Source: Methanobacteriota archaeon (GTDB lineage Archaea > Thermoplasmatota > Poseidoniia > Poseidoniales > Thalassarchaeaceae). From it: a stretch of DNA of 64,000 bases. The stretch is from the NCBI GenBank assembly GCA_018650285.1, contig JABIGF010000001.1, positions 34,072 to 98,071 of the forward strand. Direction: 5' to 3'. The notes beneath the pieces are model-generated. The model did not search any database, was not told where the DNA came from, and worked only from the letters and a program-made list of their open reading frames with translations. Positions 28,104 through 63,383 of the stretch are shown here, in pieces (position 1 is the first letter of the stretch; the number at the start of each line of letters is the position of its first letter). Position numbers and translations under genes: made by a program.

Positions 28104-29036
28104 TCAGTTGACGCGCTCCGTAACATGCACATTATCAGCACGCATTGTAATTGGGATTGGTATTGCAGCATCGAACAACTCAACAGTGACTTCTTCTTTG
28201 CCTTCTTCAACACCTGTTACGCGTGCTCGGTTGCCCTTGAAATGACCAACTCTAATTTCCACAATACTTCCAACTTGAATGCCAGCAGTTGCAGATTTAG
28301 GTTCTAGATAATTGGAAACAACAGCGAGTGGTGCTTCACCAGGCAATACCTTTGCAGCTCCTCTCATTCGTGTAGTGTCATTTCCAGCGACTCCAATTAA
28401 TTTCTCAACATGGTGTTTTGCGCTTGCTTCAACGAAAATATATCCGCGCATGAGGCGTGGGTGAATTACAGAAAATACTTCGCCTTGAACATCTCTCAAA
28501 GATCCTGTTCCTGAAAGGCGAGCACGCACCTCATTTGCAATCTTCTGTTCTTGACCAATTGTGGTCTTTAGCATGTAAAGGAAACCAGCAACGTCACCAT
28601 ACATATCACCAAGTTGTGAAACGGTGGGCCGTGGTTGCATAGAACTGATATCATCAGCATCTTCAATCTCATCTGGGCTCAATACATTGAGAAAACCGGG
28701 GTCAATCCACATTGCCTCTTCGTAGAGAGTTCTTGGCTCCATGACATTGGTGTCACTAATCATTAGAATTGGAGTGACTTCGTTTAGGCGGTTTCCAAAC
28801 TCAATACCACGTGCAGCACCCTTGCGGACAAAAGTTAACGATTCCTGAGTGATACCAGTTGAATCTTCAATTCTCATGTAAACATCATCTAGGTCACCTT
28901 CTAGGTTTCCAACACCATAGATGCCGTCCCAAGAGTTTGCAAAATCTGCAACGCCTTCACTGCGTTTTAGCAATAGCAATTTATCCTCGAAGCGAATGAA
29001 TACAATAAATCCATCAGACATTTTTTTATCCCCCAT
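28104..29036 (-). CDS. spt5: transcription elongation factor Spt5 (NGN + KOW) with a roughly 135-aa N-terminal degenerate Nudix-like extension
   Basis: NGN region GFLYMLKTTIGQEQKIANEV...RGYIFVEA and a KOW region GSIVEIRVGHFKGNRARVTGVEE. The N-terminal part has a Nudix-like fold pattern (DGFIVFIRFEDKLLLLKRSEG...WDGIYGVGNLEGDLDDVYMRIEDSTGI) but lacks the canonical REUxEE. Confidence 0.7.
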   Translation of the reverse strand: MGDKKMSDGFIVFIRFEDKLLLLKRSEGVADFANSWDGIYGVGNLEGDLDDVYMRIEDSTGITQESLTFVRKGAARGIEFGNRLNEVTPILMISDTNVMEPRTLYEEAMWIDPGFLNVLSPDEIEDADDISSMQPRPTVSQLGDMYGDVAGFLYMLKTTIGQEQKIANEVRARLSGTGSLRDVQGEVFSVIHPRLMRGYIFVEASAKHHVEKLIGVAGNDTTRMRGAAKVLPGEAPLAVVSNYLEPKSATAGIQVGSIVEIRVGHFKGNRARVTGVEEGKEEVTVELFDAAIPIPITMRADNVHVTERVN

Positions 29037-29048
29037 CCCACAAAAGTT

Positions 29049-29312
29049 TCAGCCGATTAACCAACCGAAGAACTTTGGTAATTCAGTATCCATTAACCAC
29101 AGCATTACGAAGCCGATGAAACCAAGAACAAACATACCGATTCCACAAACCCAAACGGTTTGTCTAAATTCTGCCTTGGTTGGTTTGCGTGCCATTCGAA
29201 TAATTCGAGCCCATGAACCGCGACCAAAACTGCGCACCCATGTTTCAAACTGGTCTTGCCGAGCCTGAACTCGGTCTTCAAAGGACTTGCTGACAGAGTC
29301 ATCACTGGACAT
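29049..29312 (-). CDS. secE: preprotein translocase subunit SecE (Sec61 gamma)
   Basis: Small protein with a single C-terminal TM helix (VWVCGIGMFVLGFIGFVMLWLM). It lies between ftsZ and spt5. Confidence 0.7.
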   Translation of the reverse strand: MSSDDSVSKSFEDRVQARQDQFETWVRSFGRGSWARIIRMARKPTKAEFRQTVWVCGIGMFVLGFIGFVMLWLMDTELPKFFGWLIG

Positions 29313-29373: not shown

Positions 29374-30510
29374 TTAATTGATGAATTCAAGACTACGATT
29401 GCGCATTGACTGCATTTGTTGGTGTGCTGTAGCGCCAAAAATTTGTTGACTCTTGACACCCGTTAAAACTAGCAATACTCGCAATTCGTTGCCCATATCG
29501 GGGTCAACAGTAGCACCCCAAATGATGCGTGCATAAGGGTTGATTCTCTCTCGTATTTCTTGGGCACAACGTTCTGCTTCTCCCAGTGTAAGGGATGGAC
29601 CGCCGACAACATTCACAAGTGCGCCGCGAGCGTCTGAAACATCGATGTCCAATAGTGGAGACGAAAGCGCTTGACTGGTTGCATCAACTGCTCGGTCAGT
29701 TCCAGTGCCTTCTCCTAGACCAATCATTGCCATTCCACCGCCATTGAGCATGACACTTCGTAGGTCTTCAAAGTCAAGATTGACCAAACCTTCCTTGGTG
29801 ATCATTTCAGTGACGCCAGCGATTGAACGCATGAGAAGTTCATCAGCAACACGGAACGCTGCTTCAATTGGTAAATCTTTGACACCTTCAACCTCGAGTA
29901 ATTTTTCATTTGGTAGAACTACGACAGTGTCGCAAACTTCGCGTAATCTCTCTAATCCCCATTCCGCATTTTGCCGGCGTAATGTTCCTTCAGATGCAAA
30001 TGGATAGGTAACTACTGCGATAGTAAGTGCACCAGCCGCTTTTGCTAATCTAGCCATGACATGGGCTGAACCAGTTCCAGTTCCGCCGCCAAGTCCGGCA
30101 GTGACGAAAGCTAGGTCACAATCATCAACAATGTTGTTGAGAGTTCTTTCGGATTCGTATGCTGCTTTCTCACCTTTCTCAGGGTCTCCACCAGCACCGC
30201 GGCCACGGGCAGTTCGTCCAATCAGAATTTTTGTTTCAATATTGGAACGAAGCAAATGTTGTGCGTCCGTGTTAACAGCGTAGCCAGAAATATGGTCGCC
30301 TTTGAGCAATCCTTCATCATGAAGCCGTTGAACGGTGTTACAACCACACCCTCCGCATCCAAATACACGGATACGTGGGGCTAAACTAGCGAGCAATTCC
30401 ACCAATTCTTCGTCACCAGGAGTGATTTTGGCATCAAAATCTTCACTTTCATCTTCAGCGACAATTTCGCTTTCTTGCAATTCTAAAACGCGGTCAATCA
30501 AATGGCGCAT
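29374..30510 (-). CDS. ftsZ: cell division GTPase FtsZ
   Basis: Tubulin signature GGGTGTGSAHVMA and N-terminal VFGCGGCGCNTV (compare M. jannaschii VVGCGGAGNNTI). There is strong overall collinearity with archaeal FtsZ1. Confidence 0.9.
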   Translation of the reverse strand: MRHLIDRVLELQESEIVAEDESEDFDAKITPGDEELVELLASLAPRIRVFGCGGCGCNTVQRLHDEGLLKGDHISGYAVNTDAQHLLRSNIETKILIGRTARGRGAGGDPEKGEKAAYESERTLNNIVDDCDLAFVTAGLGGGTGTGSAHVMARLAKAAGALTIAVVTYPFASEGTLRRQNAEWGLERLREVCDTVVVLPNEKLLEVEGVKDLPIEAAFRVADELLMRSIAGVTEMITKEGLVNLDFEDLRSVMLNGGGMAMIGLGEGTGTDRAVDATSQALSSPLLDIDVSDARGALVNVVGGPSLTLGEAERCAQEIRERINPYARIIWGATVDPDMGNELRVLLVLTGVKSQQIFGATAHQQMQSMRNRSLEFIN

Positions 30511-30670
30511 ATGGCTAGCCTCACTAAAGCCGCCTTAACCTTGACGATGGCAATGGGAGGCTTGGAGCGGGTTATCGCACCCATCCGCAATAGCCGAAAA
30601 GGAGAATCTCCTCCCTTAGGGAGGACAAATAGCCCGAAGTTCAAAGTGCAAGGGGTTGTCTGTCGGGCTG

Positions 30671-33600
30671 ATGAAGTACAAGCCAATGTTGTTAGTGATT
30701 ATTTTTTTAACCGCTTCTTTGCAGGTTTTTGCAGCACCTGAAAGCGTGCTTGAAGAAGAATCACCTATTGCTAGTACTAGTGCTAGTCAATGGGAAATGG
30801 CAGATGGGCCAGAAATACAATCGGGATGGTCTCCAAATGTATGGCAACCAGATTCAAAAAGTGCATTTTGGGAGATGGATTTTAGCCCTGATGGCAGCAA
30901 ATTAGCGGCTGTTGAAATATCTGATAACCGCCTTTTTGTTTGGAATGTTGACGACGGAAGAGTTCTATTGTGGATACACCATGATGCGGCAATTGTCGAT
31001 GTAGTTTGGCTATCAAACGAGTGGGTGCTTGTAGCAGATGGAGGAATCAATTGGTATTCATATCAAGTGATGGACAATGGTACATCATCCCCTCAATCCT
31101 CTACATTGATGCGCTCTGGACAATGGACTGATTCACTTACTGGAACTTATCCAGGGTGGTTATGGGGTTTAGACGCTTCTGTAAACAACTCAAAAGTAGC
31201 ATTTTGTGGAGATATTGACCAGATGAATATGGGTGGCGAAGTGGTTGTTGCTAACCTAAATCACTTCATTGACGGCTCGCCGGCAAATGCCCAACACTTT
31301 TTCCCACAATATTGGGTTACTGATTGTGCAATTTCTCCCAATGGTGGCACGGTAGCTGCCTTGGGTCGAAATGTGACCTACTACCCTGATGGGAATGTCA
31401 CTTATCGTGATGTAGTCTATGGTGTTGAAGTAGCAACTGGTGCTCTCTCTTGGAGTCGTTTTGTAGGCGGCGACAATTCTTCAGCATGGGCTGTTACTTG
31501 GGAGCCTGGTGGTGGCAGTTACACTGTTGGATATAATCACCCAAAACCAAGCCAACCATCTGTTTGGGAAGGTGTTGTTACGGCTTTTGCAGAGGTCGAT
31601 GGGTCAATTTTTTGGTATTCAACAATTCCTCAGAATTTGAGTAGTATACGTTGGTTACCAGATGGCTCATATCTAGGGGTTGGATTGTATGACCCCGGTA
31701 GAATATCATTCATCAATACAGCGGGCCAGATTCAAACAGATTTTGGTTGGCATTCGGTTCGTTCAGGTTCAACAACAATTCCAGAAGATGTTACCGCTGT
31801 TGCAACAACTACTATTCCAGCAACAACAACAGCAAACCAATTGATGGCATCGGCAGGAAAAGATGGTGGAATTGAGATTTGGAATATTGATGTTTCAACT
31901 TTTGAAATAGTCCCATATCGAAGATTTGGGCCCTCTATAATGAGAGAAATTGCAGTTCACCCTAACCAAGATTTAGTAGCGATTGCTGAATCATCAGGTG
32001 TTCTAACAGTTCGCTCAGGAATCAATGGTTCAATTGTTTCACAATGTTTCCACCCTGAATTTGGTCAGTTAGTCTATGAGATTCCATTTGCAAAATCTGT
32101 CGAATGGATGAATGGTGAAGCGGTAGCTGGATTTAGTGATGGAGTAATATTTTCATGCAACGAATTTAATAAATTCTCTTGGACTTTTGATTTAAGAAAT
32201 TTTCAGACAGTTGGCTCTTTCGGTAGAGTTGCAGTCCAACCCAACAGCAATCACATTGCAATTTCTTGGTCGTCAAATACAACGAATAACACACGTGATG
32301 GACATGTGGCAATTATTGACCCTATGTCGGGCCAATTTTTCAAAGAGTGGCAATATGCCGAAACTCATTGGACATTAGATTTCAATGACTTTGGTACAAA
32401 ATTAGCTTCAGTTGGTCAATCTGGTGGGGTCAGATTATGGAATACTAGCGATCCGAACCCAGCAAATTGGATAGACGATGGCTCACCATATTCTCACACC
32501 GGCTATGTTGGCGTTACACAATGGATGCCTGGTGCAGATTTATTGGTCACAGCCGGCTGGGACAAACAACTCATTTTTTGGGATGTTCAATCACAAATGT
32601 CGATGATGCAATTAACATTGCAATACGAAGCATTTGCTTTTGCTGACTTGATGGCTCAAGGACTTGCAGTTGTTGCAACCGGAGATTCATCAACATCTCA
32701 AGTTGGTCAATTAGAGTTTTATGATATTCAAAATAGTACTCTTGACTCAACATATCAACTGAATCATATTCCTCGTGGATTGGGTGTTCTTCCCATTGAA
32801 CAATCTTTGGTTGTGGTGAACCATACTGGTACTCTTCTAATCCTCAAGAAGGATGCGGATGGAGATGGCTGGGCGGATGATGTAGACGCCCTCCCCAATG
32901 ACCCTACTCAACATTTGGATAACGATGGGGATGGATGGGGTGATGACCAGACTCAAGTTACAGGAGATGCTTGCATCTCAATTCAAGGCACTAGTCATGA
33001 AGATAGAAATGGCTGCCCTGATAGCGATGGAGATGGTTACAGCGATGCTGATGCAACTTGGCTCGCTCACCCTGTAGGAAATGCAGATGCCTTCCCGAGC
33101 AACCCCTCACAATGGCGAGATAGTGATGGTGATGGATATGGTGATATCTATTCATATTCTGTTGACGCACAAGGCCTTCGCACAGGTGAAGTAGGAGATG
33201 CATTCGCTAATGATGGTGCACAATATCGTGATTTAGATGGTGATGGTTGTGGTGACAATTATTCTTACGGCGATGATAACGGAATGAGAATTAATGAAGC
33301 CGGTGATGCATTTATTTCAGATCCTACTCAGTGCAACGATTTTGATGGTGATGGATATGGTGATAATTACACCTATGTGAATAATTTTAATGGATTGCGT
33401 GAAGAGAATGGCGACGCATTTCCAACAGATTATCTTGCTTGGTCAGATGTTGATGGTGATGGTTGTCCAACAAATTCTGCTACCGGATTAACGATTGACC
33501 TTTATCCAACAGATGGCCAATATTGTGATGAAGATTTACCATTTTGGTTGCCTATTAATTTACAGACAGTAATTACCAACGGCGTAAATCTTTGGAATAT

Positions 33601-34333
33601 TCAGATGTCTTGGGACTCTGCCGCAAATAATACAGACATGCTTCGTTTGGAAGTGGCTTTGAGTAATAATACAACAATGCCAATAGATGATGAATACACA
33701 ACATTGCAAGTATGGACTACAATCGGTGCGGTAAGCGAGGACGTTTCTGTAGACCCTGTGGAGGGTAACGAAATTCTTCATCTACGATTTACAGCTATCC
33801 CTGATGATGGCGCATTATTAAGTAGAAATTGGTCTGCAGTATGGGTTGCAAATGAAACAGAAATCGTGGATAATTCTTCAAATGATAATTCTTCAAATGA
33901 TAATTCTTCAAATAACGACTCGGATGGTGATGGAGTAATAGATTCTGAAGATAACTGTCCAAATGATTTTGGCACACCAGAAAATTATGGTTGTGTTTCT
34001 AATACATCTAATCAGACAGGAAGTGACGAAAATAATGATGAATTTGGTGAAACATCGTCATTGTGGTATGTTGGAATTGGAATTGGTTTGTTTATCGTTG
34101 TGATTCTTGGATTTATGGGTATTCGATACAATCGTAAGACAGACACTATCGCAGAAGGCGTCTATACCATGGGTCAAGCAAGTCATGCCCCTCCATCAAT
34201 ACCCCCTACACCAATAATGCACCCACCATGCAAGGATTGTGGCGGTTTTGTTCAAGAGGTAATCAATCAAAATGATCGTTGGACATGGTGCCCTTCGTGT
34301 CGTGAATGGCAAGAGTTCCTTGGTAAGAGTTAA
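30671..34333 (+). CDS. giant cell-surface protein with a signal peptide, beta-propeller-like repeats, thrombospondin-type-3-like Ca-binding repeats, a C-terminal TM helix and a cytoplasmic Zn-ribbon tail
   Basis: Signal peptide MKYKPMLLVIIFLTASLQVFAAP. Numerous W/G-rich propeller-like blades. A run of D-x-D-G-D-G-x-x-D repeats (e.g. DADGDGWADDVDALPNDPTQHLDNDGDGWGDDQ). A TM helix (LWYVGIGIGLFIVVILGFMGI), then CKDCGG...CPSC. Confidence 0.55.
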   Translation: MKYKPMLLVIIFLTASLQVFAAPESVLEEESPIASTSASQWEMADGPEIQSGWSPNVWQPDSKSAFWEMDFSPDGSKLAAVEISDNRLFVWNVDDGRVLLWIHHDAAIVDVVWLSNEWVLVADGGINWYSYQVMDNGTSSPQSSTLMRSGQWTDSLTGTYPGWLWGLDASVNNSKVAFCGDIDQMNMGGEVVVANLNHFIDGSPANAQHFFPQYWVTDCAISPNGGTVAALGRNVTYYPDGNVTYRDVVYGVEVATGALSWSRFVGGDNSSAWAVTWEPGGGSYTVGYNHPKPSQPSVWEGVVTAFAEVDGSIFWYSTIPQNLSSIRWLPDGSYLGVGLYDPGRISFINTAGQIQTDFGWHSVRSGSTTIPEDVTAVATTTIPATTTANQLMASAGKDGGIEIWNIDVSTFEIVPYRRFGPSIMREIAVHPNQDLVAIAESSGVLTVRSGINGSIVSQCFHPEFGQLVYEIPFAKSVEWMNGEAVAGFSDGVIFSCNEFNKFSWTFDLRNFQTVGSFGRVAVQPNSNHIAISWSSNTTNNTRDGHVAIIDPMSGQFFKEWQYAETHWTLDFNDFGTKLASVGQSGGVRLWNTSDPNPANWIDDGSPYSHTGYVGVTQWMPGADLLVTAGWDKQLIFWDVQSQMSMMQLTLQYEAFAFADLMAQGLAVVATGDSSTSQVGQLEFYDIQNSTLDSTYQLNHIPRGLGVLPIEQSLVVVNHTGTLLILKKDADGDGWADDVDALPNDPTQHLDNDGDGWGDDQTQVTGDACISIQGTSHEDRNGCPDSDGDGYSDADATWLAHPVGNADAFPSNPSQWRDSDGDGYGDIYSYSVDAQGLRTGEVGDAFANDGAQYRDLDGDGCGDNYSYGDDNGMRINEAGDAFISDPTQCNDFDGDGYGDNYTYVNNFNGLREENGDAFPTDYLAWSDVDGDGCPTNSATGLTIDLYPTDGQYCDEDLPFWLPINLQTVITNGVNLWNIQMSWDSAANNTDMLRLEVALSNNTTMPIDDEYTTLQVWTTIGAVSEDVSVDPVEGNEILHLRFTAIPDDGALLSRNWSAVWVANETEIVDNSSNDNSSNDNSSNNDSDGDGVIDSEDNCPNDFGTPENYGCVSNTSNQTGSDENNDEFGETSSLWYVGIGIGLFIVVILGFMGIRYNRKTDTIAEGVYTMGQASHAPPSIPPTPIMHPPCKDCGGFVQEVINQNDRWTWCPSCREWQEFLGKS
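33871..33915 (+). repeat. 15-nt tandem repeat x3 (taattcttcaaatga) encoding NSSND repeats inside the surface protein
   Basis: Perfect or near-perfect direct repeats visible in the sequence. Confidence 0.6.
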
Positions 34334-62348: not shown

Positions 62349-63311
62349 ATGCCAAAGAAGGGAAGTAGTAAGGCGAATGCTGGTGAAAAATCAGTTGACG
62401 CGCGCGCAGTAGCACGAACAGGTGCTACGAAGCGCAATGGTACCAAAACATCTGACTTCGGCGTTTCTAAGCGAGAGAGCCATGATGCGACCCAGTTTTA
62501 CGGTTCAGCGATGTATCGTGGCTTGCCAAAGGAATCAGATACTGGAGATGTGGGAGTTTTACCAGATGATTTGCATAATCAAGTGATTTGTGGAGATGCG
62601 CGTGATATGCGTAATATCCCTGATAATTCAGTTCACATGATGGTCACTTCCCCACCATATAATGCCTCCAAAACTTACGATGATGACCTTGCACTTTCTG
62701 AATATCTTGACCTATTGAGAGGGGTGTTTGATGAGTGCTATCGTGTGCTTGTTCCTGGTGGAAGGGCTTGTATTAATGTTGCAAACCTTGGGCGCAAGCC
62801 GTACATTCCACTAGCATCTTTCATCAATCAGATTATGATTGAAATCGGATTTTTGCCACGGGGTGAAATCATTTGGAATAAGGCAGCAAGTGCGGGCGTA
62901 TCATGCGCTTGGGGTTCGTGGAAATCTGCATCCAACCCAACATTGAGAGATGTTCATGAATACATTCTTATTTTTTCAAAGGGGCAGTTTAAGTTACCAC
63001 GTTCACGTTCTGAAAAAGAAGAGGGGCGCGAAGATTCAATTGGCAAAAAAGAGTTCATTGAATGGACTAAGTCAATCTGGACGTTCCCTACTGTGAGTGC
63101 AAAGAGAGTGGGGCACCCAGCCCCATTCCCAGTGGAATTACCACGTCGTTGTATGGAGATGTATACTTTTGTCGGAGATATTGTTCTTGACCCATTTGGT
63201 GGGTCTGGAACGACAGGAATCGCTGCAAAGCAAAATGGTCGCAAATATCTCTTGTTTGATATCAGTGAAGAGTATTGTGAGTTGGCAGAAAAGAGAATTG
63301 CTGACAATTAA
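62349..63311 (+). CDS. beta-class DNA methyltransferase (N4-cytosine/N6-adenine type), solitary
   Basis: Motif IV VTSPPYN precedes motif I DIVLDPFGGSGTTGIAA, which is the beta-class order. No adjacent restriction endonuclease gene. The first ATG is at 62349; the ORF track start at 62268 is a non-ATG start codon. Confidence 0.75.
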   Translation: MPKKGSSKANAGEKSVDARAVARTGATKRNGTKTSDFGVSKRESHDATQFYGSAMYRGLPKESDTGDVGVLPDDLHNQVICGDARDMRNIPDNSVHMMVTSPPYNASKTYDDDLALSEYLDLLRGVFDECYRVLVPGGRACINVANLGRKPYIPLASFINQIMIEIGFLPRGEIIWNKAASAGVSCAWGSWKSASNPTLRDVHEYILIFSKGQFKLPRSRSEKEEGREDSIGKKEFIEWTKSIWTFPTVSAKRVGHPAPFPVELPRRCMEMYTFVGDIVLDPFGGSGTTGIAAKQNGRKYLLFDISEEYCELAEKRIADN

Positions 63312-63383
63312 GCCACCGGAGAGATTTGAACTCTCGACCGCCTGATTACGAATCAGGTGCTCTACCAGCTAAGCCACAGTGGC
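63312..63383 (-). tRNA. tRNA-Thr (anticodon CGU), no encoded CCA
   Basis: Reverse complement GCCACTGTGGCTTAGCTGGTAGAGCACCTGATTCGTAATCAGGCGGTCGAGAGTTCAAATCTCTCCGGTGGC folds as a cloverleaf. It has a 7-bp acceptor stem, a D-arm, anticodon stem-loop CCTGA-TTCGTAA-TCAGG and a T-arm GAGAG-TTCAAAT-CTCTC. Confidence 0.85.

Follow-up and report, generated by a model that had tools for sequence, protein, structure and literature searches.

We analysed a 64,000-nucleotide stretch of contig JABIGF010000001.1 (assembly GCA_018650285.1, positions 34,072 to 98,071 of the forward strand; hereafter the window, in whose coordinates all features are given) from an archaeon of the family Thalassarchaeaceae, order Poseidoniales, and we provide evidence that its gene for the transcription elongation factor Spt5 encodes an additional N-terminal domain of the Nudix fold. 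The spt5 gene occupies a single unbroken open reading frame (ORF) of 310 codons at 28104..29036 on the minus strand. Because orthologues are 299-306 amino acids (aa) long and begin with MSDGF, translation probably starts at the second in-frame ATG, at 29021, rather than at the alternative ATG at 29036; the coding sequence is then 28104..29021 (305 codons, stop at 28104..28106). A Shine-Dalgarno-like GGGGGAT at 29028..29034 on the same strand, separated from ATG 29021 by a 6-nt spacer, may serve this start. The continuous 310-aa ORF described in the initial annotation, which was made from the DNA letters alone, is thus real, but the probable protein is 305 aa, and all residue numbers below refer to it. 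The peptide quoted in that annotation is present in the translation.

The domains of the protein follow one another closely along the minus strand. A Nudix-fold core comprises residues 1-108 (28698..29021), as delimited by AlphaFold2 (predicted local distance difference test score, pLDDT, 81-95), Foldseek, hhalign and profile matches, with predicted strands at 4-11, 14-20, 34-37, 62-67, 71-75, 78-89 and 100-106 and a helix at 45-55. Within it, translation, alignments to NudC and canonical Nudix proteins, and column counts over 81 sequences place a degenerate Nudix box at residues 33-57, GIYGVGNLEGDLDDVYMRIEDSTGI (28851..28925). A variable acidic insert, recognized from the alignment and from its pLDDT of 63-81, covers residues 109-135 (28617..28697). 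The junction helix that follows, residues 136-145 (QLGDMYGDVA, 28587..28616), is the last helix of the Nudix domain and runs into strand 1 of the NGN domain, which takes up residues 146-235 (28317..28586; Pfam PF03439, TIGR00405, Foldseek). A linker and the KOW domain complete the protein at residues 236-305 (28107..28316), with Pfam PF00467 at 250-281, TIGR00405 and AlphaFold strands at 253-302 in support. The extra N-terminal module had been put at roughly 135 aa; it is present as claimed but extends to about residue 145.

The window protein is this organism's canonical Spt5, since the NGN domain, the KOW domain and the conserved gene position are all found. TIGR00405, the NCBIfam equivalog for archaeal Spt5, covers ORF residues 154-307 (NGN plus KOW) with E 2e-31 and 108.7 bits, against a cutoff of 69.95. 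The Spt5-NGN match (PF03439) has E 8e-10 and lies above the Pfam cutoff. The KOW match (PF00467) reaches 19.1 bits in the window protein, slightly below its cutoff of 22.3, and Pfam finds KOW in 29 of 34 orthologues. Searched with Foldseek, the full-length model retrieves Spt5 of Pyrococcus furiosus, Thermococcus kodakarensis and Methanocaldococcus jannaschii at E 5e-15 to 6e-12, with Nudix proteins in second place.

Residues 1-145 form a Nudix-fold domain of alpha/beta/alpha architecture, and belong to the superfamily by fold and by homology, because Pfam, profile search, profile-profile comparison and predicted structure agree. Taken alone, the N-terminal ~150 residues of the window protein gave no Pfam match at E<=1 and no PDB sequence match at E<=10. 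Pfam NUDIX is recognized in 9 of the 34 orthologues (best E 2.7e-6), some of which exceed its gathering score (P0026, 22.2 bits versus 21.1). When a profile of 29 N-domain sequences was run with HMMER against 1.84 billion representative proteins, 291 matches were obtained at E<=1e-3, and outside the Spt5 family the whole-domain matches at E 1e-12 to 1e-9 were genuine Nudix proteins. All ten distant matches tested scored above the Pfam NUDIX cutoff; a second, lower-ranked batch contained seven Pfam NUDIX proteins in ten, the others being P0195 and P0213, which have no Pfam family, and P0215, which carries Spt5-NGN and KOW. A comparison by hhalign of the N-domain profile with the canonical Nudix protein P0153 gave 98% probability and E 3e-13 over 108 columns at 31% identity. 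Against the PDB the 29-sequence profile yielded marginal matches only (NudC, E 0.18), and a match to flagellin (E 0.081) in the same search was judged spurious.

Structure prediction supports the same assignment. The AlphaFold2 model has a pLDDT of 84.2 at full length, and the N-domain modelled alone reaches 85.5 with a predicted TM-score of 0.79. Its 284 Foldseek matches in the PDB at E<=1e-3 are headed by 50 that are all Nudix proteins (TM 0.51-0.67), among them RppH (5e-7), Ap4A hydrolases, NudI, NudC, MutT and NrtR. The Methanosarcina mazei MutT structure 3GRN aligns at Foldseek E 9e-7, with a root-mean-square deviation of 2.8 over 109 columns and 23% identity. Profile and predicted structure thus bear out the Nudix fold that had been proposed for the N-terminal segment from its sequence pattern.

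The nearest relatives of the domain are small archaeal and DPANN Nudix proteins of ~130-140 aa, together with Nudix domains fused to IF-2B/e2b2-like isomerases. Many of the closest active relatives (P0154, P0160, P0214, P0206, P0175, P0199 and others) are of this second kind, the partner domain being of the ribose-1,5-bisphosphate or methylthioribose-1-phosphate (MTR-1-P) isomerase type. This association suggests that the ancestral Nudix protein acted on a ribose-phosphate or nucleotide substrate.

The Nudix box of this domain is degenerate throughout the family. Its register on the motif GX5EX7REUXEEXGU was the same in three alignments (to NudC; to canonical relatives with Escherichia coli MutT and RppH; and by hhalign), and columns were counted over 81 sequences, namely the window protein, those of 78 species genomes and two divergent members. 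In the window the changes are E7 to N, R15 to M, E16 to R, E19 to D and E20 to S, so that MRIEDSTGI stands where active relatives have (R/K)E(I/V)xEETGI. Position E16 is Arg in 78 sequences and Cys in 3; position E20 is Ala, Cys, Thr, Ser, Val or Ile and never acidic; and position R15 is Thr, Ala, Met, Ser or Lys, with Arg occurring three times only. Position E19 is better kept (Glu 56, Asp 21, Gln 4), as is position E7 (Asp 73, Asn 7, the window having Asn). A further Glu of the active relatives, in their 'SEN' motif, aligns by hhalign to Leu in the Spt5 domain.

Each of the 81 members has therefore lost two of the three metal-binding glutamates, and the box of active hydrolases, in which E16, E19 and E20 are metal ligands or catalytic residues, is broken. 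The replacement of the REUxEE glutamates, reported initially for the window alone (MRIEDS), holds for every tabulated member. Because the defining Nudix motif fails, we describe the N-domain as a putative Nudix-like pseudo-enzyme domain rather than a hydrolase.

The fusion is widespread and intact. A search of 5.8 billion proteins returned 645 relatives of the window Spt5, the best 120 of which are nearly all ~290-305 aa long, with 97-100% query coverage and identity down to 54%; their names are Thalassarchaeaceae, Thermoplasmatota or 'Euryarchaeota' metagenome-assembled genomes, that is, Marine Group II (MGII). The same architecture is also found in hundreds of protein clusters. The N-domain by itself, scanned against a single genome for each GTDB species, matched 181 genomes, and our locus counts rest on the best 80 of these, in which every lineage-named genome is Poseidoniales or Thalassarchaeaceae. 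An unbroken ORF of 285-306 aa joins N-domain and NGN-KOW in the same frame at 79 of the 80 loci; two of the 79 run off a contig end, and L020 and L022 also contain the full ORF, with longer in-frame N-terminal extensions. The only apparent exception, L061, has a 693-base run of N within the gene, with both halves otherwise intact. An architecture that recurs in 80/80 species-level genomes cannot reasonably be put down to chance.

Additionally, a search seeded with a divergent member recovered ~304-aa proteins named 'Candidatus Poseidoniaceae archaeon'. Because these share the architecture, the fusion spans both Poseidoniales families, MGIIa and MGIIb. Apart from contig-end fragments, the profile search of 1.84 billion representative proteins found no standalone copies of the N-domain. 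Two checks proposed in the initial annotation are answered by these data: orthologues across the Poseidoniales genomes examined share the extension, and neither a frameshift nor a separate upstream gene was found. Scans of IMG/VR with the family alignment or with the divergent P0215 gave no viral relatives, and BFVD gave separate Nudix and NusG matches only, with no fusion.

The N-domain is conserved almost as closely as the elongation factor to which it is joined. The mean majority fraction per column is 0.74 in the Nudix core, versus 0.79 in the Spt5 part (NGN, KOW) and 0.49 in the acidic insert, which is absent or shortened in many orthologues. Ratios of nonsynonymous to synonymous substitution (dN/dS; Nei-Gojobori, 136-179 orthologue pairs) are 0.075 for the core, 0.14 for the insert, 0.039 for NGN and 0.018 for KOW, values that are approximate since dS is ~1.5 and near saturation. 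By these sequence-based measures, the Nudix domain is under strong purifying selection.

Invariant positions (>=97%) comprise R10, R20, D26, F27, W31, D32, G33, G36, G38, T55, R66, R71, G72, G76-N77-R78-L79, P84, L86, Y100, W105 and D107, together with Y141-G142-D143-V144 at the junction; R50, which occupies the E16 position of the box, falls narrowly below invariance (78/81, 96%). The LLLKR motif, F27, W31, P84, L86 and W105 are common to the Spt5 domain and the active relatives. Specific to the Spt5 domain are D32, Y35, R50, the RG..GNRL hairpin (R71-G72...G76-N77-R78-L79), Y100 and YGDV.

The last helix (about 137-144) matches the C-terminal helix of canonical Nudix proteins, and strand 1 of NGN (147-153) begins within ~2 residues of it. 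Because the helix enters that strand so directly, the Nudix and NGN domains are predicted to be joined without a flexible linker. The junction helix drops in pLDDT from ~90 at full length to ~66 when the N-domain is modelled by itself. Being confidently predicted only when NGN is present, it may well pack on NGN, as the models suggest. The N-domain has an isoelectric point (pI) of 4.26, with 20 Asp or Glu against 10 Lys or Arg and a net charge of about -10, whereas NGN-KOW has a pI of 7.2. We considered this acidity as a sign of histone or DNA mimicry and set the idea aside as weakly evidenced, because the proteome of the window is acidic overall (median pI 5.1).

Subclades have elaborated the N-terminus further. 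Some MGIIb subclades carry an extra N-terminal SAP domain (Pfam E 3.9e-13), attached through an acidic low-complexity linker, and others have an acidic N-terminal tail only (the extended MGIIb orthologues are P0011, P0017, P0019-P0024 and P0058). In a clade related to MGIIa, P0134 and P0310 have two to three C2H2-like zinc fingers, again with an acidic low-complexity linker; the CxxC...HxxxxH pattern is visible, and Pfam support is weak (19.6 bits versus a cutoff of 27). On these sequences, the Spt5 N-terminus seems to be a hotspot for gaining modules of DNA-binding type.

P0215, a highly divergent singleton of 275 aa with Nudix-like, NGN and KOW domains, is encoded on a single 4.7-kb contig of the Joint Genome Institute (JGI) metagenome 3300042731. 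It is collinear with the window protein (full-length identity 25%, E 2e-26), and its box is also degenerate. Instead of secE and L11, the genes near it are those of an intein-containing ThyX, a 66-aa Anti-TRAP-like zinc protein and NADAR, and a word-indexed search for relatives returned P0215 alone. Its source may be a virus, some mobile element or a lineage not yet sampled.

The N-domain derives from a small archaeal-type Nudix hydrolase and was acquired by Spt5 throughout Poseidoniales; as to function, we suggest that as a pseudo-enzyme it would bind rather than hydrolyse. The NGN domain docks on the clamp coiled-coil of RNA polymerase above the DNA cleft; in M. jannaschii Spt5, residue A4 of strand 1 has reportedly been assigned to the clamp-docking surface by mutagenesis. 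Because the module abuts NGN strand 1 and NGN docks on the clamp, the module would be held fixed beside the clamp and DNA cleft of the elongating polymerase. In the mechanism that we prefer, the former active-site cleft would hold a phosphate-bearing ligand without turnover, through the Arg at the former Mg-binding Glu plus R10, R20, R66, R71, R78, F27, W31, Y100 and W105. An Arg in place of a Mg-binding Glu, five further invariant Arg and aromatic residues, in a domain that is otherwise acidic, make up the pattern that would be expected of metal-independent binding of a phosphate ligand. A nucleotide-type metabolite might fill this place, as might an exposed DNA or RNA nucleotide, and occupancy may modulate the grip of Spt5 on the clamp, and through it pausing or processivity. 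Non-catalytic Nudix domains have firm precedents in NrtR and the NUDT9-H domain of TRPM2, which sense ADP-ribose, and in CFIm25, which binds RNA. Taken as one statement, that a ligand- or nucleotide-binding regulatory module sits on Spt5 is our leading but tentative interpretation, and we judge its chances to be slightly short of even.

Several points count against ligand binding. The relative domain orientation and the position on RNA polymerase are putative, and the near-saturated dS makes the measured constraint approximate. The strong acidity (pI 4.3) disfavours broad nucleic-acid binding, a concern tempered by the acidic proteome. Most invariant residues outside the box are common to active relatives and may be purely structural, and the family-specific hairpin R71-G72...G76-N77-R78-L79 could equally be a protein-protein surface.

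The initial annotation had gone on to propose that the module couples elongation to a nucleotide-derived signal, which is plausible. In its most specific form, the binding module would be a sensor on the elongating RNA polymerase, reading a nucleotide-derived signal (ADP-ribose, NAD, Np4N or an alarmone) or a flipped-out non-template base and tuning pausing or processivity accordingly; so specific a role is unlikely on present evidence. Were it true, a small-molecule or base-reading module would for the first time be known as part of an Spt5/NusG-family factor, in one of the ocean's most abundant archaeal groups, and the lineages that added SAP or zinc-finger modules would offer an archaeal counterpart to the elaborate N-terminal region of eukaryotic Spt5.

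Nearly as likely as ligand binding, and in our view a serious if somewhat doubtful possibility, is that the domain is purely a docking or scaffold module with no small-molecule ligand. It could stabilise NGN, either as a substitute for Spt4 or alongside it, make extra contacts with the RNA polymerase clamp, or offer the acidic insert, along with the SAP or zinc-finger modules, to chromatin or upstream DNA, much as the acidic N-terminus of eukaryotic Spt5 does. The rigid junction with NGN, and a junction helix that is confident only when NGN is modelled, fit such a role, as do the acidity of the domain and its insert and an invariant RG..GNRL hairpin that is family-specific and missing from active relatives; the SAP and C2H2-like additions of subclades suggest that the N-terminal end faces DNA. 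Set against docking, six invariant Arg in an acidic domain and the Glu-to-Arg change at the metal site look like a retained phosphate-binding cleft. With respect to the Spt4 variant, phmmer searches using M. jannaschii and P. furiosus queries gave no Spt4 match in the window or in 83 loci, which at ~6-64 kb per genome are tiny genome fractions.

An active Nudix hydrolase carried by Spt5, which might during transcription remove pyrophosphate from the 5' end of nascent RNA as RppH does, strip NAD or Np4A caps from it, or else sanitise the nucleotide pool nearby, is improbable. The best structural neighbours are indeed RppH and Ap4A hydrolases, eukaryotic Spt5 is generally known to recruit 5'-end processing enzymes, and acidic residues persist at E19 (Glu or Asp in 77/81) and at the E7 position (Asp in 73/81). 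However, E16 is Arg or Cys in 81/81, E20 is never acidic, R15 is not conserved and the additional 'SEN' Glu is lost. The lead of RppH over other Nudix structures is also marginal, the E-values lying within about one log, and RNA is generally understood to leave the polymerase close to where KOW lies in Spt5 rather than close to NGN.

That a small Nudix gene and a 150-aa spt5 were joined by an assembly or sequencing frameshift or a lost stop, for which the unusual length for an archaeal Spt5 is the only argument, is a negligible prospect that we reject, given one ORF (285-306 aa) across 80/80 independent species genomes and many metagenome assemblies, an invariant YGDV junction, no intervening stop and no free-standing N-domains besides contig-end fragments.

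The gene lies in the canonical archaeal cluster ftsZ-secE-spt5-L11-L1-L10-L12, all on the minus strand. Directly upstream is secE (29049..29312; Pfam SecE E 1.4e-4, slightly below cutoff), with a gap of 27 nt to ATG 29021, and upstream of secE is ftsZ (29374..30510). Downstream of spt5 are the gene for L11 (27733..28038, 101 aa; Pfam and NCBIfam), which is separate from the fusion, and those for L1 (27032..27721), L10/P0 (26025..27140) and L12/P1 (25704..26018), the last three identified from the ORF list and Pfam. In 79 of the 80 loci secE is immediately upstream of spt5; in the other, L019, the contig stops 71 nt upstream of spt5. Three further contigs (L081-L083) carry P0271, a protein of the P0127 type with relatives (P0312, P0325, P0327) that bear the name Poseidoniaceae, and in this clade secE-spt5 is kept. 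There L11-L1-L10-L12 does not follow spt5 and unrelated opposite-strand genes stand in its place, so that the ancient cluster is broken.

Other features of the neighbourhood are recorded in their own right. The 101-aa L11 of the window covers the C-terminal RNA-binding domain only (residues ~82-158 of the 161-aa archaeal L11, by PDB alignment) and has no N-terminal factor-binding domain. Each of the 73 Thalassarchaeaceae loci, among the 80, with a measurable L11 frame has a short L11 of 91-104 aa, counting from its first ATG; in the other seven, L11 is non-adjacent, on the opposite strand, or lost to a contig end or N run. Searches by phmmer with M. jannaschii and E. coli queries found no match to the L11 N-terminal domain in the window or in 83 loci (~6-64 kb per genome). 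Were this domain truly lost, it would be a remarkable state for the ribosome's GTPase-associated centre.

The FtsZ encoded at 29374..30510 has an acidic N-terminal extension of ~45 residues, its Pfam match to the tubulin/FtsZ GTPase domain starting at residue 47. On the plus strand, 30656..34333 encodes a 1225-aa protein that appears, from the ORF translation alone, to be secreted or membrane-anchored. It has WD/beta-propeller-like repeats, then many DxDGDGxGD repeats (calcium-binding, thrombospondin-type-3-like), and a C-terminal transmembrane segment with a Cys-rich tail. The sole tRNA gene of the 64-kb window is tRNA-Thr (CGT) at 63311..63383 on the minus strand.

To our knowledge, no transcription factor other than Spt5/NusG is conserved across all domains of life, and the archaeal version of Spt5 is regarded as the minimal NGN-KOW form. 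An order-wide, constrained pseudo-enzyme domain on NGN would indicate that this core factor can gain regulatory modules in archaea too. Marine Group II archaea are very abundant in the ocean, uncultured and ecologically dominant. Our search of the literature turned up no mention of a Nudix-Spt5 or Nudix-NusG fusion and nothing relevant on the Spt5 of Marine Group II; in databases these proteins go plainly by the names 'Spt5' or 'NusG'. Nudix-Spt5 is a concrete and testable candidate for metabolite- or nucleic-acid-dependent control of elongation. It is small and open to recombinant study, and should be notable to specialists in transcription.

Compared with known systems, the Poseidoniales protein shares with archaeal Spt5 (TIGR00405; P. 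furiosus 3P8B, M. jannaschii 4ZN3) the NGN and KOW domains and a position after secE and before L11, and the window Spt5 is 33-34% identical to the solved archaeal structures over ~160 columns. Canonical archaeal Spt5, however, is ~150 aa with nothing before NGN strand 1, whereas that of Poseidoniales has ~145 additional folded N-terminal residues. With the Nudix superfamily (PF00293) it shares the fold, the order of secondary-structure elements and the flanking motifs LLLKRS..V.DF...W.G..G,.P.LF.S and W.DP. Active Nudix proteins have an intact box, while the Spt5 domain has a degenerate box, has lost the downstream Glu, bears an acidic loop before the last helix and is fused to NGN.

Comparable in principle is bacterial NrtR (Foldseek E 2e-5), likewise an impaired Nudix domain fused to a transcription-related domain, which acts as an ADP-ribose sensor. 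NrtR is a winged-helix DNA-binding repressor that acts at initiation, whereas the partner in Spt5 is NGN-KOW and not a winged helix, and we found no specific sequence relationship between NrtR and the Spt5 N-domain. Any likeness to sensing of the NrtR pseudo-Nudix type is an analogy of principle only. The same holds for CFIm25/NUDT21, the NUDT9-H domain of TRPM2 and the C-terminal domain of MutY, in which the Nudix fold has been reused to bind RNA (UGUA), ADP-ribose and a damaged base, respectively. CFIm25, as is generally known, also takes part in co-transcriptional RNA processing, but all three belong to eukaryotic or bacterial contexts unrelated to Spt5. Within the Spt5/NusG family itself, eukaryotic Spt5 has an acidic N-terminal extension, as here, but one that is disordered and not Nudix. 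The NusG of Thermotoga and Aquifex (1M1G, 2LQ8) likewise shows a decorated NGN-KOW core, its extra domain II lying inside NGN and having a different fold.

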